NCBI GenBank assembly: GCA_032718475.1
Contig: JAUCBJ010005713.1
Span: forward strand, 1-46,582
Direction of reading: 5' to 3'
Length of the DNA: 46,582 bases
Origin: Nemertoderma westbladi
Lineage: Eukaryota; Animalia; Xenacoelomorpha
Below the pieces are notes generated by a model. The model ran no database searches and was not told the origin of the DNA. It saw only the letters and a list, made by a program, of their open reading frames with translations. A program made the translations under genes and the position numbers. Shown one piece after another: positions 1 through 33,233 of the stretch (its first letter is position 1; every line of letters begins with the position of its first letter).

Positions 1-1238
1 TGCTTACTGCAATAAAGAAGCTATATCCTTTAATGTTCGCGCTTTCAGACCTTTGGCAGTTTAACCCGCCAAATTAAGATGTCTTCTAGATATTAAATCG
101 CTTTTTAGCCTATGACAAGTATTTGATTCACTACACTAGTCGAAACCAATCCGTGCGCGACCATTCACCCGCTGGATATTCCCGGGAGATTGGGTTCGAC
201 GGTTTAATTTTGTTGCTATGTAAGCCTAATGTATTATTCGACTGACAGTATTATATAATCTCTGACAATATTATTCACCTTAGGTAATATTAACAGTTCC
301 TTTAGGACGTGGCGCTTTATCTACTTAAACAGAGTTATGACTTAAACTACTCACAACGATATGGCTTAATTATAATTCACATATATGGCGCATTCTTTAG
401 GAATGCTTCTTTAACAGACTCACTCATACACAATGCTGCACAATACTGCACACTAATCTGCCGATCTTCACTGATTTTAGTCACATATAAAAGGAACACA
501 GACTGACTCATGTAGGGTCTATCAAATAACATTAGATTCACTTCAAACCACTTTAACATAAGTCACAATCGTTTATCTGTAACCTTTCTCTCTTACCTTC
601 GGTATATCAAGAATATTGGGTGTCGGGGTTATTTCTCGTTATTCCAATATAATAATTCATCAACAAATATAATGAATAACCGACAACAAATAGCAGTATG
701 CAATATTCACAAAGCCAGTTATGCAGTACTGCAGTATGCAGTGATTACGAAATTGCAGAGTGTTTGTTTCGTCAGTTAAAGGATATATGTCCTTGTAATT
801 AAACCTACTAGTGTTGAGCTAAAAAGCATAAAACATAAAACACTAAAAGCCGTTCTTTCGTGGCTTTGAAAAACTCGTGACTACTGCTCTATACGAGTAT
901 ACCAACCACTCTTATTCCACGAAGCTCCCGTTCAACACAGAGAAAGAGCAGTGAGATAGGAAATTTTCAGTTCAGTACTCTGTGATTGGTCAAAATCAAG
1001 GCTAACTCAAAATTCTATTGGGAGATACAAAAACAAGGCTATGACGCAACCTCCCTAGGCTTGTTGGCCGATTAAACAGAGCCCAGATGCCTGCGTACAG
1101 CAAATCAGCCAATAAGCTGGTAACTTGCACTATTTTTAGCTGTAGATCACTTTGAGAGTATTCTTAGCGACTGGGGGGGAACTGGCCAACAAGGCAAACG
1201 AATCAGTTATCCCACAAAAGCTTTTACATTTGGTTTAA

Positions 1239-3658
1239 CACGTTCAAACATGTATCAAAATTTGCGCTAATTATTTCTGCATTCACCCATGCAACTCATT
1301 TTGGATGAGTACTAAATCCTCCTAGTCAATTAGCCCGATTATTATCGGGGAAACGATAATCAGAGAATATTCAGAGAAAGTATACTCTCTGACATTTGGA
1401 AATATTTACTACAGTTACTAAGGTAACTAACTATTCTGTGAACGGCACTCCCTTACATGTATTACCTGGCGTTGTGTAGTTCCTAGGCGACTGACTGTAT
1501 ACACTAAACACGCAGGCACAATCAAGCCGTTTTAAAGCAGCCCCCTGTGTTTTTTTTTAATAAGATTTAGTAGTTTACAGTATGTACCGCCGATGTTCTT
1601 AAAAATGTTAGCTATTTAATACTTATATTCGCAGCGATCGTATGTGAATAGGCCGTCCACCGTGGATGGTGGTACTAGTGTGTTTTGTGCGAGCACACCA
1701 CACCCCCCCCCCCCCCAAATTTGTTATACTAGCTAGTTTTTATTAATTTTAATGTTCTAGAACATATTATCTATTAATTTAATATGAAAATTATGTTATA
1801 GAACAAAACTTTTTTTTATATTAATTGTATATCTTTATAGTAGCTATTTTAAATTTGAAAAATAGTACAGGGATTTAAATAACCATGAAATCTGTAGACC
1901 CATAAATAATATTCTAAGTGCTGCTGAATTTCAACGTAATATGCAGCCTGGTATACTCTGTGTTCCACCAACTCATACAGAACAGTCGCAAATTATAGAG
2001 GATAAATTGTTTCAGAAGTATTTGCACTGGGTTTTAATACGAATTTTAACGTGTAAAGATCCCTCATTCCCGCAATTCTCTGGATGGAATATTAAGACCT
2101 TACAGCCTCCTGTTGGTTCGGTTATTACTAACAAGGTTGGAAAAACCGAATTGAAATACTTACCCCCCCCCCCCCCCCCCCCCCGTTTCTAGTCCAGTAT
2201 CAGAATTTGGTACGATAAAAAAGGTATTTGGCATAATTTTAAAGCGTTGTGATGTTGTAAAATGTAAATATGCCAATGTTACTGTGGATGTTGGTGCTGC
2301 AATGAATGCGTATCGAGTATTGTGGAATGACCATATTTATATATTTAATAGCATTTTTCTTCACCTAGGGGACTTTCACTTAATGAGGGAATGTTTCGGA
2401 ATTTTAGGAAAATTAATATCAGGCTCTGGGTTTGAAGACATCATAATCAGTCAGGGATTTGTACATATGGGGCGATAAGTAGCATTATATCAACTTCACC
2501 ACATTACAACCGGTGTTGGTACATACATCATTTTTCTGAGTCTCTTGAAAGGCTTATGTTTGAACGATTTGTAATAGAACAACCCGAACTGGAGTGGAGG
2601 ATATCGAAATCAAAGCAAAATTTACGTACTGATCTCGCAAATGAACAATGCGAACACGACAAATACATTTTGCAGCAGTACAGTAAATTTACTAATGACT
2701 GCAAATTAGGACTCCTATGTTTTGGACAACTTGTTACCTTGAAATATACACTGCAATCCAAGCTCTTCACTGCGCAGTACAAACAAATAACTACCATTTT
2801 GAGATTATATGCATGGAAGTACCTTATAGCATGGGCGTTTTCACTAAACAAACAAAACTATTCTCGATTTGGCTCATATTACATCAGAAGTTTAGAGACT
2901 ATTACACGGACATTTAATAGTATTTTACCATCCTACACGCCTTCCAATGTTGATATATTTATTACCTTACAGAAAACTATATAAGATATTACTTTTCCTT
3001 TAATACACCCGATTTACTGATATACCTACTTACTTATATTGTAATATATTCATTGATTGCATTGCATTTCTGTTCTGTTCTGTTCTGTACGTTTCGTTTA
3101 TGGCAAATTATATTCCCTCTGGTAAACAAAATTTGTTGCTGTTAAATAAATAATTACAATTATATTGAAGAAATGACAATTTATTTTAGTAAATATCATT
3201 TTCCTAATTGTTAAGAATATTATAACTTTGCTTCGGTTTTTGTCACAACATAATAAGCTACTGTAGTAGAAAAGTTTGAAAACGAAAGTATAAAATTCTG
3301 ACTCTCAGAACGTCAGTTCCATCTTTGTATTATTTTTATAAGAATTTTCAACGATCTGTGACTCAGTTTATGTATAAGCGCATGAATTTTGTATAATACA
3401 TTAAAAAACAATTAATATAATGTAAGGAATCGCCTACACTGGTACACAACATAGGCCTACAGTACATATAGTTGCCTAGTAACTGTAGTAAATATTTCCA
3501 AATGTCAGAGAGTATACTTTCTCTGAATATTCTCTGATTATCGTTTCCCCGATAATAATCGGGCTAATTGACTAGGAGGATTTAGTACTCATCCAAAATG
3601 AGTTGCATGGGTGAATGCAGAAATAATTAGCGCAAATTTTGATACATGTTTGAACGTG
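1239..3658 (+). mobile_element. Internally degenerate TIR DNA transposon with CAC...GTG termini, 182-bp TIRs and a 4-bp TTAA TSD (Chapaev/CMC-like, superfamily tentative)
   Basis: 1239-1420 is the reverse complement of 3477-3658. TTAA lies at 1235-1238 and 3659-3662. Transposase-like remnants are inside. Confidence 0.8.
1941..2920 (+). pseudogene. Frameshifted DNA-transposase-like remnant
   Basis: Fragments in several frames: FSGWN..YLPP, DVGAAMNAYRVLW..LHLGDFHLMRECFGILGKLISGSGFEDI, FWTTCYLEI, AFSLNKQNYSRFGSYYI. I recognise these as typical of invertebrate DNA-transposon ORFs. A poly-C run at about 2164-2184 breaks the frame. Confidence 0.65.
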
Positions 3659-4447
3659 TTAAACCAAAGTAGCTACATTTTATGGCAGTTAATGTAAATG
3701 TTGGATTCTTAAAAAAAGTGAATGTATTTTGTTCTCATGTAAATTTATCGCATTTAAAAAATAAAAGTGGCGATAAATTTGTATTTAAATTAATCGCCGG
3801 TCTTCCCTCTATAAGAAAAATGTTCATTTGAAAAAATTGATTGCATTTATATTCAACCAGAGGGCCCAACATAGAGTTAGGTAGGGGTCGGCTAGCTAGT
3901 TTGTTTTTGGCCTGTAGTTCTAGAATGCAAATTAGCTATACCGATCACCAACTGTGTTCTGACGTCTAACATGGTCCTCCATCCAAAAATAATAGTCTCG
4001 TTAATTTACCGAAGGTATTGCGCTTAATGCCGCCAGAGCCCGTACTATAATGTTTGTTATTTTTAAACTATAAAGTGCAGGAAAAAGTTCCCTGATCAAT
4101 ACTAAATAAATTATTATAGTAGCTCCTTAAAGGACGAACCTTTGCCATAGCGTTTAAAGCGCTGGTACAGTATAATGTTGAAAGGGAACCGCCATATTAA
4201 CATGTCTTCATTGTTTGGAAATAAGGAGATGCAGATTGTAGAATAGGCTTGTGATGTCTACGAAATCCAAAACATTGGATTCAATTACTGGAACATTAGC
4301 CTAATATCTTGATGTGGCATTTAATGACGTGTTTGGAGAGAAGGCCTTAATTAATTTTGTAGAATTATTTCTGTAACTTATTGGGAAAGTGACCCATTTT
4401 TAGTTTTAAATAAATGTTTATTGGGCAAATGACTCGTCTGCTTTTTA

Positions 4448-6336
4448 TTGGGCAAGTGGTATATTGGGCAAGTGGTATATTGCATTGGGCAAGTGGTATA
4501 TTGCATTGGGCAAGTGACTCATTGGACAAGTGGTATATTGCATTGGGCAAGTGACTCATTGGGCAAGTGGTATATTGCATTGGGCGAGTGACTCATTGGG
4601 CACTTGGTATATTGGGCAAGTGGTATATTGCATTGGGCAAGTGACTCATTGGGCACTTGGTATATTGGGAAAGTGGTATATTGCATTGGGCAAGTGACTC
4701 ATTGGGCAAGTGGTATATTGCATTGGGTAAGTGACTCATTGGGCACTTGGTATATTGGGCAAGTGGTATATTGGGCAAGTGGTATATTGCATTGGGCAAG
4801 TGGTATAATGGGCAAGTGGTATATTGCATTGGGCAAGTTGTATATTGCATTGGGCAAGTGGTATATTGCATTGGGCAAGTGACTCATTGGGCAAGTGGTA
4901 TATTGGGCAAGTGGTATATTGCATTGGGCAAGTGACTCATTGGGCACTTGGTATATTGGGCAAGTGGTATATTGCATTGGGCAAGTGACTCATTGGGCAA
5001 GTGGTATATTGGGCAAGTGGTATATTGCATTGGGCAAGTGACTCATTGGGCACTTGGTATATTGGACAAGTGGTATATTGCATTGGGAAAGTGACTCATT
5101 GGGCAAGTGGTATATTGCATTGGGCAAGTGACTCATTGGGCACTTGGTATATTGGGCAAGTGGTATATTGCATTGGGCAAGTGACTCATTGGGCAAGTGG
5201 TATATTGGGCAAGTAGTATATTGCATTGGGTAAGTGACTCATTGGGCACTTGGTATATTGGGCAAGTGGTATATTGGGCAAGTGGTATATTGCATTGGGC
5301 AAGTAGTATAATGGGCAAGTGGTATATTGCATTGGGCAAGTGACTCATTGGGTACTTGGTATATTGGGCAAGTGCATATTGCATTGGGCAAGTGACTCAT
5401 TGGGCAAGTGGTATATTGGGCAAGTGGTATATTGCATTGGGCAAGTGACTCATTGGGTACTTGGTATATTGGGCAAGTGGTATATTGCATTGGGCAAGTG
5501 GTATATTGCATTGGGCAAGTGACTCATTGGGCACTTGGTATATTGGGCAAGTGGTATATTGCATTGGGCAAGTGACTCATTGGGCAAGTGGTATATTGCA
5601 TTGGGCAAGTGACTCATTGGGCACTTGGTATATTGGGCAAGTGGTATATTGCATTGGGCAAGTGACTCATTGGGCAAGTGGTATATTGGGCAAGTGGTAT
5701 ATTGCATTGGGCAAGTGACTCATTGGGCACTTGGTATATTGGGCAAGTGGTATATTGCATTGGGCAAGTGACTCATTGGGCAAGTGGTATATTGCATTGG
5801 GCAAGTGACTCATTGGGAACTTGGTATATTGGGCAAGTGGTATATTGCATTGGGCAAGTGACTCATTGGGCAAGTGGTATATTGGGCAAGTAGTATATTG
5901 CATTGGGTAAGTGACTCATTGGGCACTTGGTATATTGGGCAAGTGGTATATTGCATTGGGCAAGTGGTATAATGGGCAAGTGGTATATTGCATTGGGCAA
6001 GTTGTATATTGCATTGGGCAAGTGGTATAATGGGTAAGTGGTATATTGCATTGGGCAAGTGACTCATTGGGCACTTGGTATATTGGGCAAGTGGTATATT
6101 GCATTGGGCAAGTGGTATATTGCATTGGGCAAGTGACTCATTGGGCAAGTGGTATATCGGGCAAGTGACTCATTGGGCACTTGGTCTATTGGGCAAGTGG
6201 TATATTGCATTGGGCAAGTGACTCATTGGGCAAGTGGTATATTTGGCAAGTGGTATATTGGGCAAGTGGTATATTACATTGGGCAAGTGGTATATTGGGC
6301 AAGTGGTATATTGCATTGGGCAAGTGACTGCACCCC
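4448..6336. repeat. Composite satellite of 16/21-bp units sharing a TTGGGCA core
   Basis: Units ttgggcaagtggtata, ttgggcaagtggtatattgca, ttgggcaagtgactca and ttgggcacttggtata are interleaved. The array ends in gactgcacccc. Confidence 0.97.
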
Positions 6337-7023: not shown

Positions 7024-7896
7024 GTCTCATTTTCGTCCACAGTATTGAAAGCGCAATAGTAAATTTAGATGTACAAGGGAAAGGATCAGGTTACCATGGC
7101 ACTTTATTCTAACCAAAATAATAAACGATAGTCAGCAAACATTTACAGTTGAATTTTTCCTCGTAATCAGCTATAGTTTGCGTCGAGTTTCTTCAATGGG
7201 GATCAGCTTTGATATGTACTCCCCCCCCCCCCCCCCCACCCACCCACCTACCTGGCATGCTATGCGGGCATGGAAACTAATTAGGAGGAATTTATTAATG
7301 GGTATGCACTATGCGATATACAGTATATATAACTATCACATACCGACCATATACACATTTATTAATTATAATTCCGATAAAGGCATCATGCGTACTTAAC
7401 AGTTCATTTACATTTAAAATTATAGCAAGTAAAATTCTTAATTAGAGTAATTAAATTAAATACCAACAATAAAACAGGGTAGTTAATAATAAAGACATTC
7501 AAAATAAGGAATAGCCAATATTTTAATTAATATAATATAACAATTTAAATAAAGTGAAGGGTTGTACTTATGTATATATTAAATTGTCTATCGTGCAATT
7601 GTGTTAAAATTGTGCTAATTAAGTATATATCAGTAGTTTAGTATATAGATATTGTTGAATTGCCATACTGTACGTAATATATATACCATGCACAATATAT
7701 TTAGGCCTACAATCTGTATAGCAGTAAGTCAGTCTACCGGTCTTATCATTGAAAATGACGCCAGTTGGCGTATGAAATATTTGAATTTATTTAAATATTA
7801 TATTATATTAATTAAAATATTGGCTATTCCTTATTTTGAATATTTATATGGCTTACTTTGGTTGTTTGAATAAAATATATAATAAAAAACTGCTTT

Positions 7897-8447
7897 TTAT
7901 CCTAGCCATTGTGTTGGAGCCAGATTCTTGAGAGACTCAAGGTTAATATCAGGATCAGCTGCGAAAACTTGTGCAAGATAATCTAGGGATGGGATCACAG
8001 CTGTTGCGTACTTGGAGATAATCAATGACCATAAGGTTGCAACACCTATCGCTTCAGTATTTGGTACGACCCTTTTATTATCACCATTATCTTTATCTAG
8101 AGTTTCAGTGAAATATGATCCCCAAAGGTTTGAGCAGATTTCATCAATGTAATCGCTCTTTCCGCATTCTGCAGCGAGCTCTTCACATAAATAGACTGTT
8201 TCCCATTGAGTGCGCGATCTAACTGGGAATATATCCGCTCGCAAACTGTCTCCTATGTAAACCACTTTAGGGTGTGGCTTACCTAAGGCTCGAACTATAA
8301 ACTCATTCAGTTCAGTAAAATGGCCTCTGCTATAAACAGTACGACTATCTGTATCCATTACAACCGGCTTATCAAGATCTTCTTTCTGGGATTCAAAGTC
8401 GATGGCATAAAATGCATTGGGATTGTCTTTCGTGAAGAATCCGGGTC
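7897..8447 (-). CDS. NT5DC1: 5'-nucleotidase domain-containing protein 1-like (HAD family), 3' exon
   Basis: Open frame PGFFTKDN...VYSRGHF...KVVYIGDSLRADIFP...WETV (HAD motif IV GDxxxxD). It joins the 5' part in frame through the AG at 8449-8448. Confidence 0.85.
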
Positions 8448-8643
8448 CTACGAATTAGGGCCGACGAATTACCCAAAAAACTTCCCAAAATGACAAAAAA
8501 TAATATTTATCATAAACAATATATATATGAAAGATTCAGGTTAACTGTAACAATTTAAATTTTCATGATTTTTGTTTGTTTTACTTTAGGTAAATATTTG
8601 TGTTATTTTGTATTTCTTTTTTTTTTGGGTAATTCGTAGGACC
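8443..8643. mobile_element. 201-bp MITE (Mutator-like 9-bp TSD) in the NT5DC1 CDS; putative intron 8448-8642
   Basis: TIR ggtcctacgaatta at 8444-8457 and 8630-8643. TSD gaagaatcc (8434-8442) / gaagtatcc (8644-8652). Confidence 0.85.
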
Positions 8644-9411
8644 GAAGTATCCCGCTTTTTGTGCGTTACAGATAACAAAATCGAAATACTTTGTCCAATT
8701 AGTGTCATTGAGCGCCGTTGAGGCAACGAGATTGGCATAATCATAATGTGAAGTTGTCAGTAAAAATAAAATCTTTCCTGATACTCGTATATCTAATAAC
8801 CATTGTTTAACTTCATTGGAGCATTGGTCAATGAAACGCTCAGGGTTATTTATTACATTCGGAAACCAATTTCCCCGCTTACATTGAAAATTATCAGGGC
8901 GGTATAAAACACCGAAGCAGGAAATCAAATCGTGTATGATGGGCGCGTAATTTGGCGGCGACTCACACCTTTTGTCCAGAATATCAACTAACTTGGCAGC
9001 GATCAGCACGCCAACAGCATCGAAATTATTATCAAAAAGTCTGTAATTTGAACCTCCTTGATCCTGTGCAACGTTATCACGCAAACTTTGCCAATGTTTC
9101 CAGACACTGTCCTTGTACTTTGATTGAATTTCTTCTGTACTTAGCATTCGTGTACCATGCGAAGCTTTCACTATAACACCTTTATGGTCGACTTTAATGA
9201 AATCTCCATGCTCTATGTCCATGAAAATGCCCCTAAGTATGAAATCAATATCCTTGTCGTCCATCTCTAGAATGCTATCTTCATAACCTTTCTCTTTCAC
9301 CAAGTGCTCCGCCATACCTTTGTAAACAACCCTGTAACATTCCCTGATATTGTACCTCGCGAGAGTGTGATCTAAGTCAAGACCAATCGCATCGCAGCTG
9401 GACAACTTCAT
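8643..9411 (-). CDS. NT5DC1: 5'-nucleotidase domain-containing protein 1-like (HAD family), 5' exon
   Basis: MKLSSCDAIGLDLDHTLARY (HAD motif I DxDxT), ASHGTR, LFLLTTSHYDYA, YFDFVICNAQK. The spliced product would be 439 aa. Confidence 0.88.
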
Positions 9412-9618
9412 TGTTGATTTATTGTAGATAATGACTGCTGTAGATAATGAATTATATACTATAGGCGGGCGCCAGACAGTGAGAAAGATGGAAAATAATA
9501 ATAGAAAATAGGAACAGTTTATTATAATCAAAACTAGTTATATAATATAATGGAATGAATGATGCCTTTCGTGGCGTACAGTAAGCATACTCAAATGATA
9601 ACTATTTATGACGAATAC

Positions 9619-9732: not shown

Positions 9733-11622
9733 TTACTCACAGGTACAGATTATGGATTTACGGGCCCCTGGCAGTCCCAACTTACGGGCCCCTAACCCTA
9801 CTACCCCCCCCCCCACACCAATAGGGTTGGTGGACGAAAAAATTGTTGGGTTAGAAACAATTGAATACGGGGTAACAAGGTGCACTGAATCGAATGGCAG
9901 GGTGTGTTTTTTGTAAAACACGAGGAAACGCTCGAAATGACTGGTTTAATTAAGTAAGCGCGGGTCGCCAATTTTGAATATCGACTGTGATTGGCTGCTA
10001 CCGATTAGACGTCACTACACTGATAATTTTTTATCTTTGTTCTATGGATAGAGATTTTCGTCTCAATCATTTCACACGTGGCTTTTAACAATTGAAAGCG
10101 GAAAGTATTGCGCCCATGTGAAGAATACCAGGATTTCACTTTTCGGTCGACTTTTTATTGGAATTTTATATGAAGATTTTTTATTTTTTTTTATTTATCT
10201 TTATTAAGTGTTTTATAGCGCTTAGTTCTGTCTTATAACCTGTACATATACTAATTCGTTTATTGTTTTGGTTAGATTCAGCCCTTCTGTAACCTGTGGT
10301 TTTGGTGAAAATAACCTGGTATTCTTCACATGGGGGTAACCGCAAAGTGAAATATAACGGCAGAAAGTCTGGTATTCTTCACATGGGCCAAGTATTGCGC
10401 ATCTTTTGGCACTATAATTAATTAAATTCATGAAGAGGAACATTGATAAAATGTTATGCACAATTGTAAACTCGGCATATTGCCTGACCAGTATGCAAGC
10501 CTAATACAGCAGTTTCATGTTGTATTGAGTACGTTAAGGACCACATATTAGATTTACGGATTGATAATAACACTAAACGTGTATTACCGGTCAGCCGGTG
10601 TCACAGGCAAAAATGACGCACCCCCCCCCCCCCCACGCGAATTGCCGCACCGGGCATTTCAGCCTAGCGCCAAATGCCTCCCCAGAGCATTTTCACCCCA
10701 GATTTCGAGAGTGGTGGTCCGAAACCCGAATTTAAAGTGAAATGGCTGGCCGAAACCCTAATTAAAACCCTAAGTCATAAGGCTCTAATCTTAAGAAATT
10801 TTCTGGAATAAAGATACCAGCATTATTACTACTGTATGAGGATCAGAACACTGTCAGACTGTGACATACTTTGCAACCAGCTGACAAGTTACAAGTTATG
10901 TAGGTAGGCACAAACTTCTGCACAGCAAGGCTGTCAACTGAGTGCAAAAATCGCAAGGTGTTGTGCGCGGACACTATTAATTATAAAATAAGAATGCACT
11001 ACAGCACTAGGCCTATTCATTAAACTACTGTACATCGATTTATTTTGTGTGAATTGAATTGCTTGATGTGCGCGTTTTTTCGGTCCATGCGTGATAGGCC
11101 TATATGGTCCAATATTGCGCGGCTGAAAAATTGTGCGCGGGCGTTGTGCGCGGTTCAGTGGCGGTTTGTAGCCTGGCAGTGCACAGCGCTAAAAAGCTGA
11201 AAAGTGAAGTACTGAAACCACTGTGTTGACGCGATAACAACTGGAGCTGACTGACATACTGTAGTCAGTCAGTATTCAGTCATAAACAGGCTGACTTTAT
11301 GTTTGGTAGTTCTACGCAAACGCTAGTACCTGGCTACGCCAGTACCGGTACGCGTAGGATGGAAAGATCACCCGCAATCCAGTAATTACAATTCACTGAC
11401 AATTTTAATTGACACAGGCCTATTTAAATTTCCCTCCCTTGTTATCTTCCCTTTTTTATCGCATCGTGATTGGTATCTACTTTTTCAGGGAATTTCCTCA
11501 ACATCTCAATGTTGAGGAGAGAGTTGAAGTTTATGTTTTTAATTTACTAATCTATTTTTTTCGTTTTTACTTTGATAAAGCGATATAATTGTGCAAAAGT
11601 GTTTTGGTTGTGCCTACGTAGT

Positions 11623-13104
11623 CTACAGTGGAACCCCGGTGTGCCTTGTAGGCCTACAGTGGAACCCCGTTGTGCCTTGTAGGCCTACAGTGGAACCCCG
11701 GTGTGCCTTGTAGGCCTACAGTGGAAACTCGGTATGCCTTGTAGGCCTACAGTGGAACCCCGGTGTGCCTTGTAGGCCTACAGTGGAACCTCGGTATGCC
11801 TTGTAGGCCTACAGTGGAACCCCGGTGTGCCTTGTAGGCCTACAGTGGAACCCCGGTGCGACTTGTAGGCCTACAGTGGAACCCCGGTGTGCCTTGTAGG
11901 CCTACAGTGGAACCCCGATGTGCCTTGTAGGCCTACAGTGGAACCCCGGTGTGCCTTGTAGGCCTACAGTGGAACCTCGGTATGCCTTGTAGGCCTACAG
12001 TGGAACCCCGGTGTGCCTTGTAGGCCTACAGTGGAACCCCGGTGTGCCTTGTAGGCCTACAGTGGAACCTCGGTATGCCTTGTAGGCCTACAGTGGAACC
12101 CCGGTGTGCCTTGTAGGCCTACAGTGGAACCCCGATGTGCCTTGTAGGCCTACAGTGGAACCCCGGTGTGCCTTGTAGGCCTAAGTGGAAACCTGGTGTG
12201 CGTTGTAGGCCTACAGTGGAACCCCGGTGTGCCTTGTAGGCCTACAGTGGAACCCCGGTGTGACTTGTAGGCCTACAGTGGAACCTCGGTATGCCTTGTA
12301 GGCCTACAGTGGAACCCCGGTGTGCCTTGTAGGCCTACAGTGGAACCTCGGTATGCCTTGTAGGCCTACAGTGGAACCCCGGTGTGCCTTGTAGGCCTAC
12401 AGTGGAACCCCGATGTGCCTTGTAGGCCTACAGTGGAACCCCGGTGTGCCTTGTAGGCCTAAGTGGAAACCTGGTGTGCGTTGTAGGCCTACAGTGGAAC
12501 CCCGGTGTGCCTTGTAGGCCTACAGTGGAACCCCGGTGCGACTTGTAGGCCTACAGTGGAACCTCGGTATGCCTTGTAGGCCTACAGTGGAACCCCGGTG
12601 TGCCTTGTAGGCCTACAGTGGAACCCCGGTGTGCCTTTTTTGTAGGCCAACAGTGGAACCCCGGTGTGCCTTGTAGGCCTACAGTGTAACCCCGGTGTGC
12701 TTTGTAGGCCTACAGTGGAACCCCGGTGTGCCTTGTAGGCCTACAGTGGAACCCCGTGTGCCTTGTAGGCCTACAGTGGAACCTCGGTATGCCTTGTAGG
12801 CCTACAGTGGAACCCCGGTGTGACTTGTAGGCCTACAGTGGAACCCCGGTGTGACTTGTAGGCCTACAGTGGAACCCCCGTGTGCCTTGTAGGCCTACAG
12901 TGGAACCCCCGTGTGCCTTGTAGGCCTACAGTGGAACCCCGGTGTGACTTGTAGGCCTACAGTGGAACCCCGATGTGCCTTGTAGGCCTACAGTGGAACC
13001 CCGGTGTGACTTGTAGGCCTACAGTGGAACCCCGATGTGCCTTGTAGGCCTACAGTGGAACCCCGGTGTGACTTGTAGGCCTACAGTGGAACCCCGATGT
13101 GCCT
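11623..13104. repeat. 31-bp tandem satellite, about 48 copies
   Basis: Unit ctacagtggaaccccggtgtgccttgtaggc, with the 12-bp palindrome tgtaggcctaca across each junction. Confidence 0.97.
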
Positions 13105-13363: not shown

Positions 13364-13541
13364 TTACGCCCCCGGTTTCGGTTCATCGCCGATGGTTTTT
13401 GGCGCGTCTGCTATTCCGATGATGACATCCGGATTCCCCCCGGATCCATCGCAACTGGAGACAGGAGACCCGGCGTCGGCAAGTCTCCAACCAGCGAACG
13501 GTTGAAAAGACTGAAAGAAATCGCTCTGGAACCAAGAACTC
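13364..13541 (-). CDS. TMEM121/CECR6-family protein, exon 4 (terminal)
   Basis: Acceptor ccttttcag; its phase matches the exon 3 donor. Reads RSSWFQSDFF...PKPGA* and is a GC-richer island. Confidence 0.65.
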
Positions 13542-13674
13542 CTGAAAAGGTTAACAAAACCCGCGTCACTAAATGTGTGAAGTATAATGAGACATACAAA
13601 TATAGAATAAGAAATATAATCAACGGTAAAATATAATATAATTCTTGCTATAGTTGATAAAATTACAGTTGAAA

Positions 13675-14626
13675 TCCTGTTGTCACTACAGTCTCCTGTT
13701 GTCACTACAGTCTCATGTTGTCACTAGTCTCCTGTTGTCACTACAGTCTCCTGTTGTCACTACAGTCTCATGTTGTCACTAGTCTTCTGTTGTCACTACA
13801 GTCTCATGTTGTCACTACAGTCTCCTGTTGTCACTACAGTCTCCTGTTGTCAGTACAGTTTCATGTTGTCACTACAGTCTCATGTCGTCACTACAGTCTC
13901 CTGTTGTCACTACAGTCTCCTGTTGTCACTAGTCTCCTGTTGTCACTACAGTCTCATGTTGTCACTACAGTCTCCTGTTGTCACTACAGTCTCATGTTGT
14001 CACTAGTCTCCTGTTGTCACTACAGTCTCCTGTTGTCACTACAGTCTCATGTTGTCACTAGTCTCCTGTTGTCACTACAGTCTCCTGTTGTCACTACAGT
14101 CTCATGTTGTCACTAGTCTCCTGTTGTCACTACAGTCTCATGTTGTCAATACAGTCTCCTGTTGTCACTACAGTCTCCTGTTGTCAGTACAGTCTCGTGT
14201 TGTCACTACAGTTTCATGTTGTCACTACAGTCTCATGTTGTCACTACAGTCTCCTGTTGTCACTACAGTCTCCTGTTGTCACTAGTCTCCTGTTGTCACT
14301 ACAGTCTCATGTTGTCACTACAGTCTCCTGTTGTCACTACAGTCTCCTGTTGTCACTAGTCTCCTGTTGTCACTACAGTCTCCTGTTGTCACTACAGTCT
14401 CCTGTTTTCACTACAGTCTCCTGTTGTCACTACAGTCTCCTGTTGTCAGTACAGTCTCGTGTTGTCACTACAGTTTCATGTTGTCACTACAGTCTCCTGT
14501 TGTCACTACAGTCTCCTGTTGTCACTACAGTCTCCTGTTGTCACTAGTCTCCTGTTGTCACTACAGTCTCCTGTTGTCACTACAGTCTCCTGTTGTCACT
14601 ACAGTCTCCTGTTGTCACTACAGTCT
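13675..14626. repeat. 19-bp minisatellite with 17-bp variants, inside intron 3 of the TMEM121-like gene
   Basis: Unit tc(c/a)tgttgtcactacagtc; the short variant lacks ca. Confidence 0.97.
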
Positions 14627-15042
14627 ACAATATTAAGTTTTTATCTAAACTTTCTATTACTACAGGTTCCTCCATCAACTCAAAGGATTTTTAAGTGTAA
14701 TTTCTGTAGTCCTAGATAGGATACCGGAAAATAAAAATAACAATATACAGAAGGCATACAATTGTAGGCCTACCTCACATTAATTATTTTCATTTTCATG
14801 AAACCAAGGACATTCTGGGCCCATTCCATGCAAATGTCAACCGCTTATGTCTAGACACATGTCGTAGGCCTACAATACAACCGTATCTTGTAATTTCTTG
14901 ATTTTCTTCAATATCTTCGGTGTAGGACAATAATTTTCAAAGTCATAATTTTGAAATGTCTAACTTATTTAATGTTAAAAATTATTCATCTATACAGAAA
15001 TATATTCGGTTTACTTATAAAATTACAGTATTTTATTTATAC

Positions 15043-15188
15043 CTTCCCACAGAACAACGATCCTGAAGTTTCTCATCACAATCGCTCTTCATCTGTTGGA
15101 TTCGCGGTAATTCATCAAGCAGCAATTCTTTAATTAATTTACCATCGAGAACTAACATTATAATGTTCTTCATTAAGAAAGCATCAGC
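15043..15188 (-). CDS. TMEM121/CECR6-family protein, exon 3
   Basis: Acceptor ctttttag; ADAFLMKNIIML (family-type FxxKN motif); donor ag|gtataa, phase 2. Confidence 0.75.
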
Positions 15189-16074
15189 CTAAAAAGTAAA
15201 TAAATTGAGTTAAAAGGGTCGACAACAACATAACGATAATATAAAATAGTCAAAAGGACTAAATGTACCATATAAAAGATAAATAATAAATTAACTATTT
15301 ATTTAAAAAAAATACATTTTTGTACGACTTAGAGGTGTATGCTTTTACTATTCATCGAAAATGCGTATTATAAAGAAAACAAAAATACTTTCTTTTGCTA
15401 ATTGGCTTGTGCTAATTGGTTAATCATGTCTACTACATAGTAAGGATAAGAACACATGGGGGAAAATACCGTAATGGTAAGAACCAATTAAGACAGTACG
15501 TCCATCCAAAATTAACCTTACACCCGGGTCACACATTACATTACACATAGCCTGGAGACGTTCGCACATGTTCCATCTAACTACAAAGTTAAAATCTGGC
15601 ATTTCTATCATTGACAAACAAACAATCTTAAGTAACCACCATTATTTATCAACTGAATAGCGCAAATCAAACCCTTGTCCAGCTTTTAAATTGGAATTTT
15701 GCCAATTATTTTTTGAGTGTGTGTGTTGATTGTTTGTTTGTTGTAGTTAATTTATTTGTTTTGTTTGTGTTTTTTGAAGGCCCTATCGGCTAAGTACTAT
15801 TTTTGGGATTTATGTCCTGATTCCAGATTTTTGGTGTAATTCTCGAATGTTTACCTCTTCAGTTTAATTTAATATAACCACATACTCTAGGCCTACAGTT
15901 GTAGGCCTACATATGTACTGTACTGTTGGCTACGTGTACGACGTATGGCATTTGCACGAATCTACTACCACATTTGAGGACACTTAATAGCGACTGAAAT
16001 GCATCAGAAATCGAGATATCATTGTTTGATTATAATTTAAGAGGATGATCTAAACGTTCATCGACGTTACTAAC

Positions 16075-16191
16075 CTGTACTTTGTTCTGTCGCCACAATA
16101 CAATTCTGAGAAGAAGATAGGGTAGATTGTTGCTGAGCATAATGCAGACATGATATATTAATCTGAGAACGAGAACTCTCAACGCAGATGA
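16075..16191 (-). CDS. TMEM121/CECR6-family protein, exon 2
   Basis: Acceptor atttttcag; NNLPYLLLRIVLW (family-type NLPxLxxR motif); donor cag|gttagt, phase 0. Confidence 0.8.
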
Positions 16192-18343
16192 CTGAAAAAT
16201 GAATGCACATACATTATACTGTATATGTAGGTACAAACATACAGTAAATAGTATTTCTCAAATATAACTATTTTGTGTCACTTACGGTGCACTGTATAAA
16301 ATGGGTGAACTGTCATAAAAAATTATTAAGTATTTTAAACAGGACTTAGGATGACCCTAAAGTTCAGGTTGAGATTTGGATGATATCTAATAAACATTTT
16401 CGCCTTTTTTCTGGGGAAGATGATTCATACTGTATCAGTACTCTACAGTTACTCCGTTAGGGGAAGAAATGTATGAAAGGGAAATAATTGTCGAAGTTAA
16501 TAATTCTTTCAATATGAAACTCGACATATATTTGCTGGACCTTTGGTGAGGGCTGGTCCGGCTTGCAGTCTCACAATCACACACTATGTTGCTATACTGT
16601 AGGGCAACATTAAAATACTGTAGAAATCTTCTCATATGTCTCGCACGTGCTGCGTGAAGGTCCCACTTCCTGGCTGCTGGCTGCTACCGTACTGTATAAG
16701 GCAACAGTCATTGTTTGATTTATTTTCGTAGGATAAAATAGTTTGATAATGTTATTTTGTGTAACAATACACATAGTAAACAAGGGTCATGTGATAATAA
16801 CATACTGCATTCAGTAATATTCTGTTTTATTAATGGTATCGGTATTATTATTAATTCTTCATATCTTTAGGATTAAATTGATATTTTACTCTAACATTAT
16901 AGTAGACACAAAACAAACGTAGACTATACCTTATAAGCACAACCTACACAAAGTGAGCCGGAGCCGAGGTTTACTTTGCAAAGGTCGGCCCACAATGTAT
17001 TCGCCCTTAGCCCTTGTTTGTTTAATTAAGATGATTTCTTGCGGTTGTTTGATTTCGAGGAAAATATATTATGTAATAAAGATACGCCGATGAAATGCGA
17101 AAATGCTGTACCTACAACCTGTTGGGAAACATGCATGGACATGCTGATCTGCTACAGTTTCTACACAAGTGTAAGCGTCGCATAAAGTGTATATGAGACT
17201 TTGTGTAGCAAAGTAAAAAAATTTAGTAAATTTATTTAAATTTAGTACCAAATTTGGTTCAATTTCGGAAACCTGTCAACCAACAGAATCAGCCTGTTAT
17301 CATCGATATATTGCGCAGCCATACATACATAAACAATATGTTCCAGAATATTCTACAGCGAAAGATAATTATTGAACGCCTATATCTCTCTGAGCTGTTT
17401 CTCAACGGAACTCAGAAACATTGTTACTTATTTGGAATCATTGTAGAGCAATATTTTATTTTATCATGCCGAATTGCAACGGACTCCGGCACAGATTGAG
17501 GCACGGTAACAGGCAGAGATAGTGAATATCGCTATAAAGTATTGTAATTGCCCAGCCATAATTTCAAATTTGATTTTACTTTTATACTGTGATTAATGGT
17601 ATTATAGACCTACATGTTCAGAAAATAGCCTCCCCCGCCGCACTACAGTCTGCTGATCATTGATTGGTCGCAGAATATTTTACTTTAGTTTCCAATTTTT
17701 ATGTACAAATATTCATAAAATTGAGACTAGAAAGCCAGCAAGCTGGCTGGAAGGAGCCCGGGAGAAGAATCCTAGCCAAGACAATTACAAAGAACTATGT
17801 CAGTCAGCAGTAAGTTAACTAAACAATTGTCTAAACTGCAAGGCGTGAGGCTAGCTGACTTTGTGGCTAGCCCCACATAATAAATAATGCAACTTAGCTA
17901 CCACTAACAAAAATATAATATGAAGCAAATAATTTCATTATCAAGCAAGTTTACAAGATATAAGATATGATTGCCGAATATTTATAAAAGATGCCCATGA
18001 TGCACAACCAGATAAATAACAAATAATAAATTGAGTTTCCTTATTGTAGATCTACCCTTACGAAGTACTGGTAGAGCAATCAGCTTATGGGGTAATACAT
18101 TAGAAACCCACAGCCACATCTTATGTGTGAGTAAACATTTCCTTATAGCCTACAAGTAAAACTTGGCAACCAACACGTTTTACTATGATTGTGTATAACT
18201 CTGTCTGCAGGAAGTGCCTGAACCTGGATTATTATCAGTCAGTCAGTCAGTCAGTGTTAAACCTGAGATTTTTACAGTAAGTATCCCGCTGCGCTGTCGA
18301 GCGGGCTCCTAATTAATTTCTAATTTTAATTAGATTAACTCAC

Positions 18344-18997
18344 CCGGTAGTGTCTAGCTCTGTAGAGAACAAGAAGTCCCAAGGCAGGAAGATAGATAAC
18401 CGAGTTAGACAACAGCAAGACCGCTAAACGTAGCCTATCGTTACTGAAAACTGCATCCTTGTAGAGATAGCTGGTTAGAGAAACGGAATCCATGATATTC
18501 ATAACCGCATATAGTATGTTTAAGTGGATGTAAAGGGCGCGTTTACTGTTAGACTTATAGTTGTGGTGCATCAAAGTGAGCGGTATTATTAAAGCAGCGC
18601 TAAGAGACAGCGCAATCAATATGAACGACTCAGTGTTGTAATAATCGTATTTATTTTCTCTCATAGAGATAATAGTCTTTGGACAGAATAAATATGCGGA
18701 TTTGGCTGCGTAAACTGAAGCGTAAACGATCCAGGATACAGAGGCAAATCGGTATGACGAAGGTTTCTCTTTGAGAATATCTAGTCCGTATTCTTCGTGT
18801 TGGCGGTAGGCAAAGAGTTTGGCTATGTGAATCTCGATAAGCCATGCTACAGCTACCATGATGTCGGCGACGACCCAGACGTATGAAAGATTAAGAGTAT
18901 TGATGAAGAAACTGTTGATGATGTAAGCCTGTGCGACGAGTATCGCAATGCAGGATAACTTGAGGAACCTAGAATTCCACGGTGATGGTTTCGGCAT
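18344..18997 (-). CDS. TMEM121/CECR6-family multi-pass membrane protein, exon 1 (364 aa in total)
   Basis: 218 codons with several hydrophobic helices; WVVAD, SWIVYA..AK, NIMDSV and LP motifs; donor cgg|gtgagt. Confidence 0.8.
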
Positions 18998-20435: not shown

Positions 20436-21285
20436 GTTCTTAACTTCGCACATTCGTATTTTTCATTTTGTAAAGTAAACGGACAGCTTGTATCCAGACA
20501 ATTTGTATCCAATTTTCCTTTCGTAGCTCAGAAAGTGATTTTTTACATCCCGATTTTACATTTTATATGCAAGTTTTATTTGTGGGTTTTATCAATGCAA
20601 TTACATCGTATTGTTTGCTAATCTTTAAACAATTAATTAGATGACCTATAAATTCCATCCCCCGAATGATAATATACTGTTTTTATTGTAACTATAGAAT
20701 TATAATAATTAATTGTTTTAATTATAGGTATTATTATGTAATAGTCTTCTTCAAATTGTAGCAGATGGGGATGAATATTATAGTTGCAATCAAAATTATA
20801 CTTCTCCAGGGTAAAATCGACATGCGTCGACCTGTATTCTGTGTTCAGTATTACATATTGATATACATATTACTATACATACTATATAGATATTATACAC
20901 ACAAAATCTTAAATTTCCTGGTTACTTGCAATATTTTTAATAGGATTTTGTTGAATTATATAATATTGTAGTAATTTATATATTAAATTGGTTAACATTC
21001 AATGCAGCTCCTACTCCAGGGGAATGAAGCTGAGATGGCGTCCCCCCCCCCCCCCCCCCTACCTTCAATAATTTTAACTTATCTTTTATGACGTTGTTTT
21101 CTTAAATATTATACTTCAATTATATCTTACATAATATTATGCTAATATATATTATTGTTATATATTTGTCTATATTATTGTGATAATATTATTAGATTTC
21201 TTTTTCATCACTGAAATTTTCAGTTTTTTTTTAAATGTCGCAAAATGTTGAAAATGATATGATAAATGAACATTTTGAAAATGTT

Positions 21286-22284
21286 GACATTGTCGGCACA
21301 ACGTAACGCCGACACTGACGGCACAACGTAACGCCGACACTGACGGCACAACGTAACACCGACACTGACGGCACAACGTAACGCCGACACTGTCGGCACA
21401 ACGTAACGCCGACATTGTCGGCATAACGTAACGCCGACACTGTCGGCACAACGTAACACCGACACTGACGGCACAACGTAACGCCGACACTGTCGGCACA
21501 ACGTAACACCGACACTGACGGCACAACGTAACGCCGACACTGTCGGCACAACGTAACGCCGACACTGACGGCACAAAGTAACGCCAACACTGTCGGCATA
21601 ACGTAACGCCGACACTGTCGGCACATCGTAACGCCGACACTGTCGGCACAACGTAACGCCGACACTGTCGGCACAACGTAACGCCAACACTGTCGGCACA
21701 ACGTAACGCCGACACTGTCGGCACAACGTAACGCCGACACTGTCGGCACAACGTAACGCCGACACTGTCGGCACAACGTAACGCCGACACTGTCGGCACA
21801 ACGTAACGCCGACACTGTCGGCACAACGTAACGCCGACACTGTCGGCACAACGTAACGCCGACACTGTCGGCACAACGTAACGCCGACACTGTCGGCACA
21901 ACGTAACGCCGACACTGTCGGCACAACGTAACGCCGACACTGTCGGCACAACGTAACGCCGACACTGTCGGCACAACGTAACGCCGACACTGTCGGCATA
22001 ACGTAACGCCGACACTGTCGGCACAACGTAACGCCGACACTGTCGGCACAACGTAACGCCGACACTGTCGGCACAACGTAACGCCGACACTGTCGGCACA
22101 ACGTAACGCCGACACTGTCGGCACAACGTAACGCCGACACTGTCGGCACAACGTAACGCCGACACTGTCGGCACAACGTAACGCCGACACTGTCGGCATA
22201 ACGTAACGCCACACTGTCGGCACAACGTAACGCCGCACACTGTCGGCACAACGTTATGCCGACACTGTCGGCACCCTGTCGGCA
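21286..22284. repeat. 25-bp tandem satellite, about 40 copies, with an internal palindrome
   Basis: Unit gacactgtcggcacaacgtaacgcc; gccgaca-c-tgtcggc dyad across junctions. Confidence 0.97.
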
Positions 22285-22472
22285 CAGCGTTTACACCCGT
22301 GTTGTATGTATGTATACGATATTTTATTTCATCAATACCAACTATTAACCATTAGGGAATCATTCCTCATAATCGAAAAATGTCTACAAACACCAACCAA
22401 CAAACCAAACAAACTAACAAACAAAATAACAAACAAACAACCAGTAACCCAAAGAAGTCCTGCAACCTTCAG

Positions 22473-25400
22473 AAGATCTCCACCCAGCATCCCTCCCACG
22501 TAAACTCTCCACCGAGAATCCCTCATAAGATCTCCACCCAGCATTCCTCGTAAGATCTCCACCCAGCATCCCTCCCACGTAAAATCTCCACCGAGAATCC
22601 CTCATAAGATCTCCACCCAGCATTCCTCGTAAGATCTCCTCCCAGCATCCCTCCCATGTAAGATCTCCACCGAGTAATCCCTCATAAGATCTCCACCCAG
22701 TATCCTTCGTAAGATCTCCACCCAGTATCTATCCCTCGTAGGATCTCCAGCCAGTATCCCTCCCACGTAAGATCTCCACCAAGTATCCCTCCCTCGTAAG
22801 ATCTCCACCCAGTATCCTTTGCAAGATTTCCACCCAGTATCACTCCCACGTAAGATCTCCACCCAGTATCCCTCGTAAGATCTCCACTCAGTATCCCGTT
22901 CACGTAAGATCTCCACCCAGTATCCCTCCCACGTAAGATATCCACCCAGTATCCCTCCCTCGTAAGATCTCCACCCAGTATCCCTCGTAAGATCTCCACC
23001 CAGTATCCCTCCCACGTAAGATATCCACCCAGTATCACTTCCACGTAAGCATACTCCACCCAGTATCCCTCGCAGATCCCCACCCAGAATCCCTCCCACG
23101 TAAGATCTCCACCCAGTATCCCTCGTAAGATCTCCACCCAGTATCCCTCCCACGTAAGATCTCCACCCAGTATCCCTCCCACGTAAGATCTCCACCCAGT
23201 ATCCCTCGTAAGATCTCCACCCAGTATCCTCCTCGTAAGATCTCCACCCAGTATCCCCCCTCCCCACGTAAGATCTCCACCCAGTATCCCTCCCTCGTAA
23301 GATCTCCACCCAGTATCCCTCCCACGTAAGATCTCCACCCAGTATCCCTCGTAAGATCTCCACCCAGTATCCCTCCCTCGTAAGATCTCCACCCAGTATC
23401 CCTCCTAAGATCTCCACTCAGTATCCCTCCCACGTAAGATATCCACCAAGTATCCCTCCCTCGTAAGATCTCCACCCAGTATCCTTCGCAAGATCTCCAC
23501 CCAGTATCACTCCCACGTAAGATCTCCACCCAGTATCCCTCGTAAGATCTCCACCCAGTATCCCTCCACGTAAGATCTCCACCCAGTATCCCTCCCACGT
23601 AAGATCTCCACCCAGTATCCCTCCCTCGTAAGATCTCCACTCAGTATCCCTCCCCGTAAGATCTCCACCCAGTATCCCTCCCACGTAAGATCTCCACCCA
23701 GTATCCCTCGTAAGATCTCCACCCAGTATCCCTCCCACGTAAGATCTCCACCCAGTATCCCTCCCACGTAAGATCTCCACCCAGTATCCCTCGTAAGATC
23801 TCCACCCAGTATCCCTCCCTCGTAAGATCTCCACCCAGTATCCCTCCCACGTAAGATCTCCACCCAGTATCCCTCCCACGTAAGATCTCCACCCAGTATC
23901 CCTCCCAAGTAAGATCTCCACCCATTATCCCTCGTAAGATATCCACTCAGTATCCCCCCTCTTAAGATTTCCACCCAGTATCCCTCCTAAGATCTCCACG
24001 CAGTATCCCTCCCACGTAAGATATCCACCCAGTATCACTCCCACGTAAGATCTCCACCCAGTATCCCTCGTAAGATCTCCAATCAGTATCCCGTTCACGT
24101 AAGATCTCCATCCAGTATACCCTCCCACGTAAGATCTCCACCCAGTCCTCCCACGTAAGATCTCCACCCAGTATTCCTCCCTCGTAAGATCTCCACCCAG
24201 TATCCCTCCCTCGTAAGATCTCCACTCAGTATCCCTCCCTCGTAATATCTCCACCCAGTATCCCTCCCACGTAAGATCTCCACCCAGTATCCCACGTAAG
24301 ATCTCCACCCAGTATCCCTCCCACGTAAGATCTCCACCCAGTATCCCTCCCTCGTAAGATCTCCACCCAGTATCCCTCCTTGTAAGATCTCCACCCAGTA
24401 TCCCTCCCACGTAAGATCTCCACTCAGTATCATTCCCACGTAAGATCTCCACCCAGTATCCCTCCCACGTAAGATCTACACCCAGTATCCCTCCCACGTA
24501 AGATCTCCACCCAGTATCCCTCCCTCGTAAGATCTCCACCCAGTATCCCTCCCTCGTAAGATCTCCACTCAGTATCTCGTCCACGTAAGATCTCCTCCCA
24601 GTACCCCCCCCCCCCCCCTCGTAAGATCTCCACCCAGTATCCCTCGTAAGATTTCCACCCAGTATCCCTCCCACGTAAGATCTCCACCCAGTATCCCTCG
24701 TAAGATCTCCACTCACTATCCCGTTCACGTAAGATCTCCACCCAGTATCCCTCGTAAGATCTCCACTGAGTATCCCGTTCACGTAAGATCTCCACCCAGT
24801 ATCCCTCGTAAGATCTCCACCCAGTATCCCTCGTAAGATCTCCACCCAGTATCCCTCCATCGTAAGATCTCCACCCAGTATCCCTCGTAAGATCTCCACC
24901 CAGTATCCCTCCCACGTAAGATTCCCACCCAGTATCCGTCAAAACGTAAGATCTCCACCCAGTATCCCTCGTAAGATCTCCACTCAGTATCCCGTTCACG
25001 TAAGATCTCCACCCAGTATCCCTCGTAAGATCTCCACTCAGTATCCCGTTCACGTTAGATCTCCACTACGTATCCCTCGTAAGATCTCCATCCAGTATCC
25101 CTCCATCGTAAGATCTCCACTCAGTATCCCGTTCACGTAAGATCTCCCCTCACTATCCCGTTCACGTAAGATCTCCACTCAGTATCCCGTTCACGTAAGA
25201 TCTCCACCCAGTATCCCTCGTAAGATCTCCACCCAGTATCCCTCCCACGTAAGATCTCCACCCAGTATCCCTCCCATGTAAGATCTCCACCCAGTATCCC
25301 TCCTACGTAAGATCTCCACTCAGTATCCCGTTCACGTAAGATCTCCCCTCACTATCCCGTTCACGTAAGATCTCCACTCAGTATCCCGTTCACGTAAGAT

Positions 25401-28400: not shown

Positions 28401-28626
28401 CCCAGTATCCCTCCATCGTAAGATCTCCACTCAGTATCCCGTTCACGTAAGATCTCCACCCAGTATCCCTCGTAAGATCTCCACCCAGTATCCCTCCCAC
28501 GTAAGATCTCCACCCAGTATCCCTCCCACGTAAGATTTCCACTCAGTATCCCGTTCACGTAAGATCTCCACCCAGTATTCCTCCCACGTAATATCTCCAC
28601 CCAGTATCCCTCCCAAGTAAGATCTG
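22473..28626. repeat. 6.1-kb satellite of 25/29-bp units with higher-order structure
   Basis: Core gtaagatctccacccagtatccc plus variable tails (tc, tcccac, tccctc, gttcac, tccatc). Confidence 0.98.
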
Positions 28627-28799
28627 ATTTGGATATCCGACATTTGTTACCCAAGTTGATATTGTTTCAGTCTTTAGAGTTATGCTTAATATTTCGAATA
28701 ATATATTATTAATTAATCTGGACACCCCCCAGTCGGGGTAAATGGTAAAAAACCTAAGTAATTACATATTATTAAATTGCACGGAATCTAAAATTTATA

Positions 28800-30980: not shown

Positions 30981-33049
30981 TTGATAACCGGTTCTAGAAC
31001 AGACTCATATTTAGCCGACTCAACCACATTGGTGCGAGGCTCAGACACAGCATCTACAGCGCACAGTAATCTGTCCGATCTTGCGGATGCAGCTGATGTT
31101 ACTACTGGGTCGGTTGGAAATGCCTCTATGACAGACTCCATGCCAGTTCCCGTTGCACCAGCCGGACCAGGCCATAATGATATAAGCGCAACTCTTTGGA
31201 ACGTGGAAGGCCTAAGATCTGTGTTGAACCTAACCCACAGGGACTCAGTATTCGATACTGACATCTTGTTGTTTACAGAAACTATGGTAACCGATTTCGT
31301 TGATATACCTGGGTACTGCACGTTTCATTCTCTTGCCAAGCGCCCCCAGCGCAAGGGACGACCGTCAGGTGGAGTATGTATCGCCATAAAGCCAAGGTTA
31401 AATCCAAAGCAATTGGCTTCTAGTGATTCTCATATAGTCGTTAGTTTTTATCATGGGATATCAGCTTGTGGATACTTTCCGCCTCATATGAATCTAGAAG
31501 ATTTCATAGAGAGCGTTCTATGCATGTTAGATGATGTAAAAACCACAAGCCATTCGTTCATTATCTTCGGAGGTGATTTTAACGCATGTGCTGATCTGAG
31601 CGACCAACCGAAAACTGATGCACTGGAATTGATGATGGAGGAAAATAATCTAGCTCTACAAAACGACCCTTCAATTCACACTTATATTTGCCACAATGGC
31701 GCCAGTACGATACATATTCTTTATTCTAACTCCCAAGACAATTGTGTCGAATATATCAGTTGTCCGCTCCGGAAACACATACCTGTGAAAGTTACATGGA
31801 ATTTCATAAAGACCGGGTTGAACGATGAAGAAGAATTGATCTTCACACCTCGAAAACGAACGGTAGATATCGATAAGGTCTCAAACGATGAACGAATCAC
31901 GGAAATTTATAATTTATTGGATGAGTCCGAAATTGACGAGGCTTATTCTATTCTAACTGATGTCATCCACGATGCTGCTCCTGTTAGTCACAAACAGACC
32001 CGTTTCTCTAAACAATGGTTTGACGAGGAATGCTTTAAAAAACGTCAGGAAGTACTAAACTCTCTTCACAGAGCGAGGTTCGACCATCGGCATCGTCCCA
32101 TTCTTGGTAAACTACGACGGGAATACAAAGAACTGTTAGAATTTAAGCTAAAAACTCACAATGAGGCCCAGGAGCAAAAACAAATTATTGAAGCCATATA
32201 AATGTATATTATATCATTATATCAACATATATATTATATCCCAACCATATAAATGGTCTAAAAAGAACAGTCAACAGGAGTCTTGCCCTGTTCGTCTAGA
32301 GACATTCGAAAACCACTTCAGCCAACTACTAGGATCAACCGACACGGAGGAGGTGTCGTTTGTACGAAACCTGTGGTCTGACACCAGCCATTTGGATCCC
32401 CCTCGTACTGAGAATTGCCTGCCTGATGATGATTATGAGCGAAGCTTCTCTGAGGAAGAGATTAGAAACGAGATCTTTTCAAAGAAGCCTGGTAAATCTG
32501 GAGGCCCCGACTGGCTTCCCTATGAGGTGCTAAAGGCTGCACTCCCCACCACGTTAACAATATGGACATTGCTGCTGAATATTTGTTGGAACACGGGCCG
32601 TCTAGTTAGCGCCTGGAAGAATAGCCTTATGAAAGTGTTGTACAAGGGGAAGGGCTGCCGTTCAGACGCCGATAATTACAGAGGTATCTCTTTACTATGT
32701 ACCATGTATAAAATTTTACCCCGTCTCGTGGAGAGGAGACTGCGAAATCTACTGTCTTTTCTGATTCCTTCCGAGCAATTCGGATTTATGCCCGGGAAAT
32801 CAACCAAAATCCCTTTAGCAAAATTTATTTCTAGAATAAGATCGAATTTATCAACCCCAAAGAAGCCACTTTATGCTCTTTTCGTCGATTTTCGAAAAGC
32901 TTTCGATTCTGTGCCCCGATCTATCCTATTGTCTAAATTAGAATCATCATTCGGTATCCGCGGAAAACTTCTTAGAATTATAAAAGCAATACTGGGTGCA
33001 AATTACGTTCGGGTTTACGATGGTCTAAGGAAAAGCCGGACGATAGAAC
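30981..33049 (+). pseudogene. LINE ORF2, 5' part: AP endonuclease and N-terminal RT
   Basis: WNVEGL, LFTET, GRPSGG, GGDFN, KSGGPD, NYRGISLL, EQFGF, FVDFRKAFDSV. Frameshift near 32200. Confidence 0.9.
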
Positions 33050-33230: not shown

Positions 33231-33233
33231 GAT

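Follow-up and report, generated by a model that had tools for sequence, protein, structure and literature searches.

A short inverted-repeat element in an NT5DC1-like gene of the animal Nemertoderma westbladi probably acts as an intron through splice sites carried in its own ends

The source of new introns in animals is still an open question. It is raised in a rather direct form by an NT5DC1-like gene of Nemertoderma westbladi (Xenacoelomorpha), in which an inverted-repeat element of 200 to 202 bp, located by its terminal inverted repeats (TIRs) and the direct repeats flanking it, lies inside the coding sequence: is this element removed from the transcript as an intron, and do its own ends furnish the splice sites? 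The window analyzed here is positions 1 to 46,582 of contig JAUCBJ010005713.1 (assembly GCA_032718475.1), a stretch on whose minus strand the gene lies. The locus matters as an animal case, with transcript evidence, in which the ends of a TIR element supply both splice sites; moreover, its target-site duplication (TSD) can still be read, and five residues have been added beside the lysine of a catalytic motif. The length of that TSD, 8 or 9 bp, bears on whether the animal possesses a general intron generator.

The TIRs of the element, at 8643-8630 and 8457-8444 on the minus strand, are inverted repeats of 14 bp without a mismatch; a 14-bp perfect inverted repeat with arms 60 to 400 nt apart arose in just one of 2000 random base permutations of 500 nt. 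Bases 2-3 of the left TIR form the 5' splice site, and the right one, taken with one additional end base (8443) that separates it from the right direct repeat, holds the 3' splice site within 8443-8457. The direct repeats are 9 bp long with a single mismatch (8/9 identical), the upstream target-site copy at 8652-8644 reading as codons G-Y-F and the downstream copy at 8442-8434 as G-F-F. The TSD can in fact be drawn in three ways: as 8 bp with one mismatch, giving a 202-bp element with a mismatched end base; as 9 bp with one mismatch, giving an element with ends unequal by one base; or as 10 bp with two mismatches, giving a 200-bp element. In each of these, 15 nt are left after splicing. A sequence-only reading of this DNA had described a 201-bp element with 14-bp TIRs and a 9-bp TSD; the TIRs are as it described them, but its TSD length is one of three (8, 9 or 10 bp) that fit. 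At the right (acceptor) end only, the 14-bp unit is repeated further inward in diverged form (8458-8471, 12/14 identical), a feature absent from that earlier reading, and with this inner unit counted the TIR would be about 26 bp long and imperfect rather than 14 bp and perfect. The element is thus short and non-coding, with TIRs and a TSD, as a MITE is. Measured inward from the TIR ends, the splice sites are at 1-2 and 4-5 nt, and the exons join at a conserved motif; the limits of the element are those of the intron, as opposed to those of a later insertion into an older intron.

The reading frame of the host gene opens at 9411, runs for 256 codons to K-A-G-Y-F and then enters the element. Coding exon 1 (8643-9411), comprising these codons and the first G of the element, is an open reading frame that matches the PF05761 profile over 7-253 (E 1.6e-41, 143.1 bits). 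Coding exon 2 (7897-8447), whose first 5 nt belong to the right TIR and are followed by the second target-site copy, continues the match over 252-336 with 34.3 bits, above the cut-off of 28.5, and both exons are represented in a single transcript contig described below. If the intron is retained, the frame meets a stop at 8583-8581, the one foreseen at 8581 from the sequence, and ends after 276 amino acids. Among 20 GT/GC-AG pairs near the element that yield more than 380 amino acids, the pair 8642-8448 gives the longest product, 439 amino acids: QKAGYFGPGFFTKD. In this product D12, D14, T219, K252, D323 and D328 are each the majority residue of 128 aligned homologues, in agreement with the earlier statement that the HAD motifs are intact. 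Six of the ten best hits are named NT5DC1 or NT5DC1-like among representative proteins, a seventh is so named in UniRef and three are unnamed; the best named relatives come from a brachiopod, a hemichordate, amphioxus, a fish, an annelid, a sponge and a hagfish, at 35-40% identity. A word-based protein search with exon 1 recovered none of 169 candidates, exon 2 alone gave only weak PDB matches, and a homologue matched cN-II structures. Apart from the element, the coding sequence 7897-9411 is free of introns, in contrast to the many introns of vertebrate NT5DC1; hence, it is possible that this copy arose as a retrogene or that the lineage has few introns.

The spliced mRNA encodes K-A-G-Y-F-G-P-G-F-F, with the 15 retained nucleotides, 6 from the TIRs and 9 from the duplicated target (or 7 and 8), contributing five extra codons. 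A K..FF motif could be located in 117 of 150 homologues, most commonly as K-P-x-F-F, and is followed by a stretch of variable length; in none of the same 150 distant homologous proteins, the best of which are 31-43% identical, is it doubled. The insertion point lies three residues after a lysine conserved in 117 of the 128 aligned homologues. The proline of the second motif copy is encoded by the repeat-terminal CCC, and this copy, P-G-F-F, resembles the consensus, the first being A-G-Y-F.

The spliced joint predicted for the element was searched for in four sequencing runs (X1 to X4) of the eight listed for the window, none of which was recorded as RNA, a blank that carries no weight as evidence. 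Contig 21 of run X4 (1576 nt, depth 880.7) aligns gap-free over 7850-8446 and 8642-9500, and what it leaves out between them is precisely the expected GT-AG intron of 195 nt, 8642-8448, with 255 letters on the short side of the joint and CT..AC ends on the plus strand, equivalent to GT-AG on the minus. By its record offsets, and assuming that its ends continue colinearly, the contig would extend over 7801-9571. This joint matches the claim, made from the sequence alone, that splicing at these positions leaves 15 nt in frame, and it is as an exact 195-nt intron that the element is removed. The unspliced stretch is present in one piece in X1. X4 derives from sample S3 of study P3, and the window may come from S1 of P1. 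X4 carries the guessed label "DNA?", and its nature was therefore judged from introns read beforehand from the sequence of another gene, a TMEM121-like one with four exons and a spliced product of 364 amino acids (13364-18997, minus strand). Two of its introns, 18343-16192 (2152 nt) and 16074-15189 (886 nt), both with CT..AC ends, are skipped in X4, and a loose end mapping to 13511-13540 falls across the third, which it implies at 15042-13542. Over this gene X4 has depth in 12 of 30 bins, whereas X1 and X2 have it in 30 of 30, with long contigs running through the introns; X5 gave a single short repeat piece there, to which we attach no weight. Hence, X4 is a transcriptome, and the joint at the element is a transcript joint. 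The splicing evidence consists of assembled contigs from one RNA run of one study, set against a genomic copy from another sample. For contig 21, 11 of the 13 differences from the window are listed, and the other two may lie near the joint. X4 contains no intron-retaining contig, which, in a contig assembly, we do not take as a sign of complete splicing.

The donor matches the U1 consensus at 3 of 9 positions, against 7, 8 and 5 in three host introns in X4; the sequence-only reading had also called it weak relative to other introns of the window. In the three host introns the A of a TRAY motif stands at -23, -22 and -25. The element has two such motifs, with the A at -22 (8469, in the GGTAAT of the duplicated unit) and at -8; the background rate of TRAY in that four-base spacing window is 96 in 1164, the window itself being based on three introns and picked after looking. 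Two CatSper introns predicted from sequence have their TRAY motifs at -43 and -30, outside the host-intron spacing. That reading had drawn attention to a CTAAT just before the AG, but its A is 8 nt from the intron end and we reject it on spacing; GGTAAT fits the host introns better. A likely branch point is thus A 8469, which we offer as a lead from motif and distance, and its position in the duplicated unit suggests that the quality of this copy as an intron depends on a feature of one end.

Taking these observations together, we consider it highly probable that the element works in the manner of a "carry both" introner and is spliced out exactly, as a 195-nt GT-AG intron, in this copy; removal by the spliceosome is the most likely route. 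Two features count against spliceosomal removal, namely the weak donor and the predicted pairing of the element ends in a hairpin of -45.3 kcal/mol. The latter is also what would favor an artifact, in which reverse transcriptase skipped across the hairpin formed by the inverted repeats. However, 210 nt would be lost if the skip ran from one 9-bp direct repeat to the other, and the joint removes 195 nt at GT..AG, shares a mere 2 letters across its two sides and lies in a gene that is assembled whole in the joined form, which makes such an artifact exceedingly improbable. We regard it as very unlikely, too, that S3 carries an allele or processed copy already lacking the 195 nt in its DNA, so that its RNA was not spliced at this point. 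S3 is represented by RNA only, and X2 and X3 are without a contig at the element site, gaps that count as no evidence, so that the element may not be fixed, although no DNA contig shows the empty site. Introns can, however, be lost through mRNA, and an exact GT..AG loss that keeps 6 nt of the repeat would come most simply from a spliced mRNA, in which case the element would still once have been an intron.

Splicing could also be genuine in a gene that is a redundant duplicate under relaxed selection, with a paralogue doing the work and the five residues tolerated for that reason alone. Such a paralogue, with 28 differences in 160 nt (window 9235-9394), is found on other contigs in four of four runs, including the transcriptome X4. 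Its loose end, on those contigs, carries a matching start codon. The proximity of the insertion to the conserved lysine is in keeping with relaxed selection, as are the 7 replacement and 3 silent coding changes by which the X4 allele differs from the window, which show no departure from neutrality (p 0.35). Against this, the frame is open in both alleles (contig 21 is gap-free, with no stop among the 10 listed coding changes), the catalytic motifs are preserved and, of 18 listed differences from the paralogue, 11 are silent (p 0.0003), a biased sample in that it covers the best-conserved stretch only and 18 of the 28 differences. Contig depths in X4, 880.7 for the element-bearing gene and 73.1 for the paralogue, do not rank their expression. 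We hold redundancy to be possible but rather unlikely. It had been anticipated that an intact paralogue or allele carrying the function would undo the case for an intron: the paralogue indeed occurs in all four runs compared, but the splicing result is not undone by it. The gene is transcribed and open, and the working copy may be either this gene or its paralogue.

A wider claim would be that the element represents a true introner family, in which copies that end in GGG and have an 8-bp TSD leave 7+8 = 15 nt anywhere in exons and form introns in several genes, possibly in both orientations. In its favor, both splice sites lie within the repeat and are thus present on both strands of every copy. 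Further, the same terminus, with other flanks and three G at the end, recurs in X4 contigs and in contigs of X1 and X2 that probably represent a single locus; these are 30-letter loose ends, none of them placed in an exon. By arithmetic, an intact GGG-ended copy would leave 15 nt with an 8-bp TSD and keep the frame, but 16 nt with a 9-bp TSD, a frameshift. In the first case every exonic insertion would be in frame, and a single end base would have changed in this copy; in the second, the loss of one base would have rescued it. A 10-bp TSD with GG ends is disfavored, as the related copies end in three G. When the element is flipped, GT and AG are present and the strand is T-rich ahead of the AG (35 T in the last 60 nt), but the sole TRAY motif in those 60 nt is at -8. 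A branch-point-like motif at the host spacing thus comes only from the 14-bp unit duplicated at one end, and orientation independence of splicing is accordingly doubtful on sequence grounds. Also weighing against a family of introners are the single intron observed, the single copy in the 46.6-kb window, which has no related sequence elsewhere in it, and an X4 transcript contig (record 22), of unplaced gene position, in which one end of an element remains unspliced. All four runs contain short element-like contigs, with contig depth being no gauge of copy number. On balance, we view a true introner family with reserve, as an unlikely but live prospect, and are somewhat more skeptical still of the broadest version, in which an animal MITE family of Merlin or Mutator type, with GGG ends and an 8-bp TSD, seeds introns genome-wide, such that an insertion into an exon, whatever its orientation or phase, becomes a canonical intron plus five codons.

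As to class, Mutator/MULE elements have TSDs of 8-11 bp, and both their G-starting ends and the TSD of 8, 9 or 10 bp fit the element; both traits, however, are shared with Merlin, whose GG termini and TSD fit as well. A Mutator-like identity is consequently unproven, and a Merlin-like 8-bp TSD with GGG ends would fit equally well. A metagenome scan for the element terminus gave no matches; a looser one gave 5, all of 13-14 bp and without an inverted partner, which we take as chance. The TIR letters, in a search covering 12 of the 14, had no match in the supplement files of PMC12130899, a blank of little weight, as the rows concerned hold no sequences.

In light of the above, we propose that the element belongs to a MITE family of many copies, with ends of GGG and a TSD of 8 or 9 bp, and reached this site by cut-and-paste transposition. 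Doubling of the terminal 14-bp unit on the acceptor side would then have placed a branch point at the usual distance of the host, so that this copy is probably a better intron than the average member of its family. The five added residues might have been tolerated since the K-P-G-F-F motif is followed by a loop of variable length. Overall, the likeliest picture is an occasional gain of an intron from a MITE whose ends are ready for splicing, as opposed to a proven intron factory.

The remainder of the window, which holds the NT5DC1-like, TMEM121-like and CatSper3-like genes together with satellites and retroelements, displays a number of other repeats. Another inverted-repeat element, with 60-nt arms that are 90% complementary, lies at 7489-7849, about 50 nt past the NT5DC1-like stop codon, and the X4 contig, at its inferred 3' end, extends into it. 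The element at 1229-3668 has arms of 192 nt that are perfectly complementary and encloses broken ORFs; three ORFs were tested and gave no Pfam match. The CatSper3-like gene (42207-46340, minus strand), for which the single and best hit is a nemertean protein at 45% identity, has a last exon of about 540 nt and predicted introns holding decayed LINE pieces; at 43717-44644, one intron contains two nearby LINE-like fragment copies in opposite orientation, with arms that are 79% complementary. A Copia-like LTR element at 33048-39701, with 183-nt LTRs that are 99% identical and with RVT_2 and rve domains, is split by a long inverted-repeat element (36635-38211) that is in turn embedded among LINE fragments. 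Large tandem arrays occupy 4398-6169 (units of about 16/37 nt), 11492-12700 (about 31), 13557-14600 (about 19), 21161-22400 (about 25) and 22380-28670 (about 25/29).

In the literature searched, which lacked most subscription papers, we found no report of this element. In operational terms, introners have been defined as at least four similar introns in genes of different paralogy groups (PMC12130899). In a survey of 3,325 genomes, no more than two animal or land-plant groups had introners (PMC9860276). Animals account for 0 of the 44 "carry both" rows of a 2025 introner table (PMC12130899, Dataset S2), and the animal rows noted there, one from a sea urchin and two from tunicates, co-opt both splice sites from the host. 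Several known elements offer parallels. The MITE-derived introns of the tunicate Fritillaria borealis share with the present element a MITE origin and an animal host, but they have non-canonical ends and need an altered spliceosome, whereas the element here is GT-AG (PMC11282704). The Doc1053-derived intron of Drosophila sechellia GM26034 is likewise a single animal intron gained from a transposon, with the frame kept and five amino acids added; Doc1053, however, is a retrotransposon and not a TIR element, and the splice sites are not described as a symmetric feature of its ends (PMC3296678). Merlin DNA transposons resemble the element in their 5'-GG termini, 8- or 9-bp TSD, imperfect TIRs and internal tandem repeats, but have TIRs of 24-462 bp as compared with 14 bp perfect or about 26 bp imperfect here; the word "intron" does not occur in the main text of the paper describing them (PMC8101967).

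Further counterparts come from introns known outside animals. The fam65 elements of the dinoflagellate Amoebophrya sp. A120, of the Mutator class, are TIR elements that serve as introns and have GG/CC termini and an 8-9 bp TSD, but they are about 627 bp long, use non-canonical 3' sites and show MuDR homology (PMC12130899, Dataset S2 row 590). An 8-nt TSD is also found in ILE classes 6, 8 and 10 of Polarella glacialis and in the IEs of A. anophagefferens, which form introns in either orientation, the behavior that the sequence-only reading suggested for the present element, with one splice site recruited from the TSD (bioRxiv 10.1101/2020.10.14.339549); in the present case, neither site comes from the TSD and a single orientation is seen. 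A further likeness is to the introners of Aureococcus sp., which carry both splice sites and leave 4+8 = 12 nt (Gozashti et al. 2022, PMC9860276, Fig. 2F): in these, too, both sites are inside the element, and its ends remain in the mRNA with the TSD as whole codons. They differ in forming a multi-copy family in an alga and in leaving 12 nt, as against the one intron shown here, which leaves 15 nt. Thus, intron formation of the "carry both" kind has already been published for Aureococcus, and the NT5DC1-like gene presents it in an animal, with transcript evidence.
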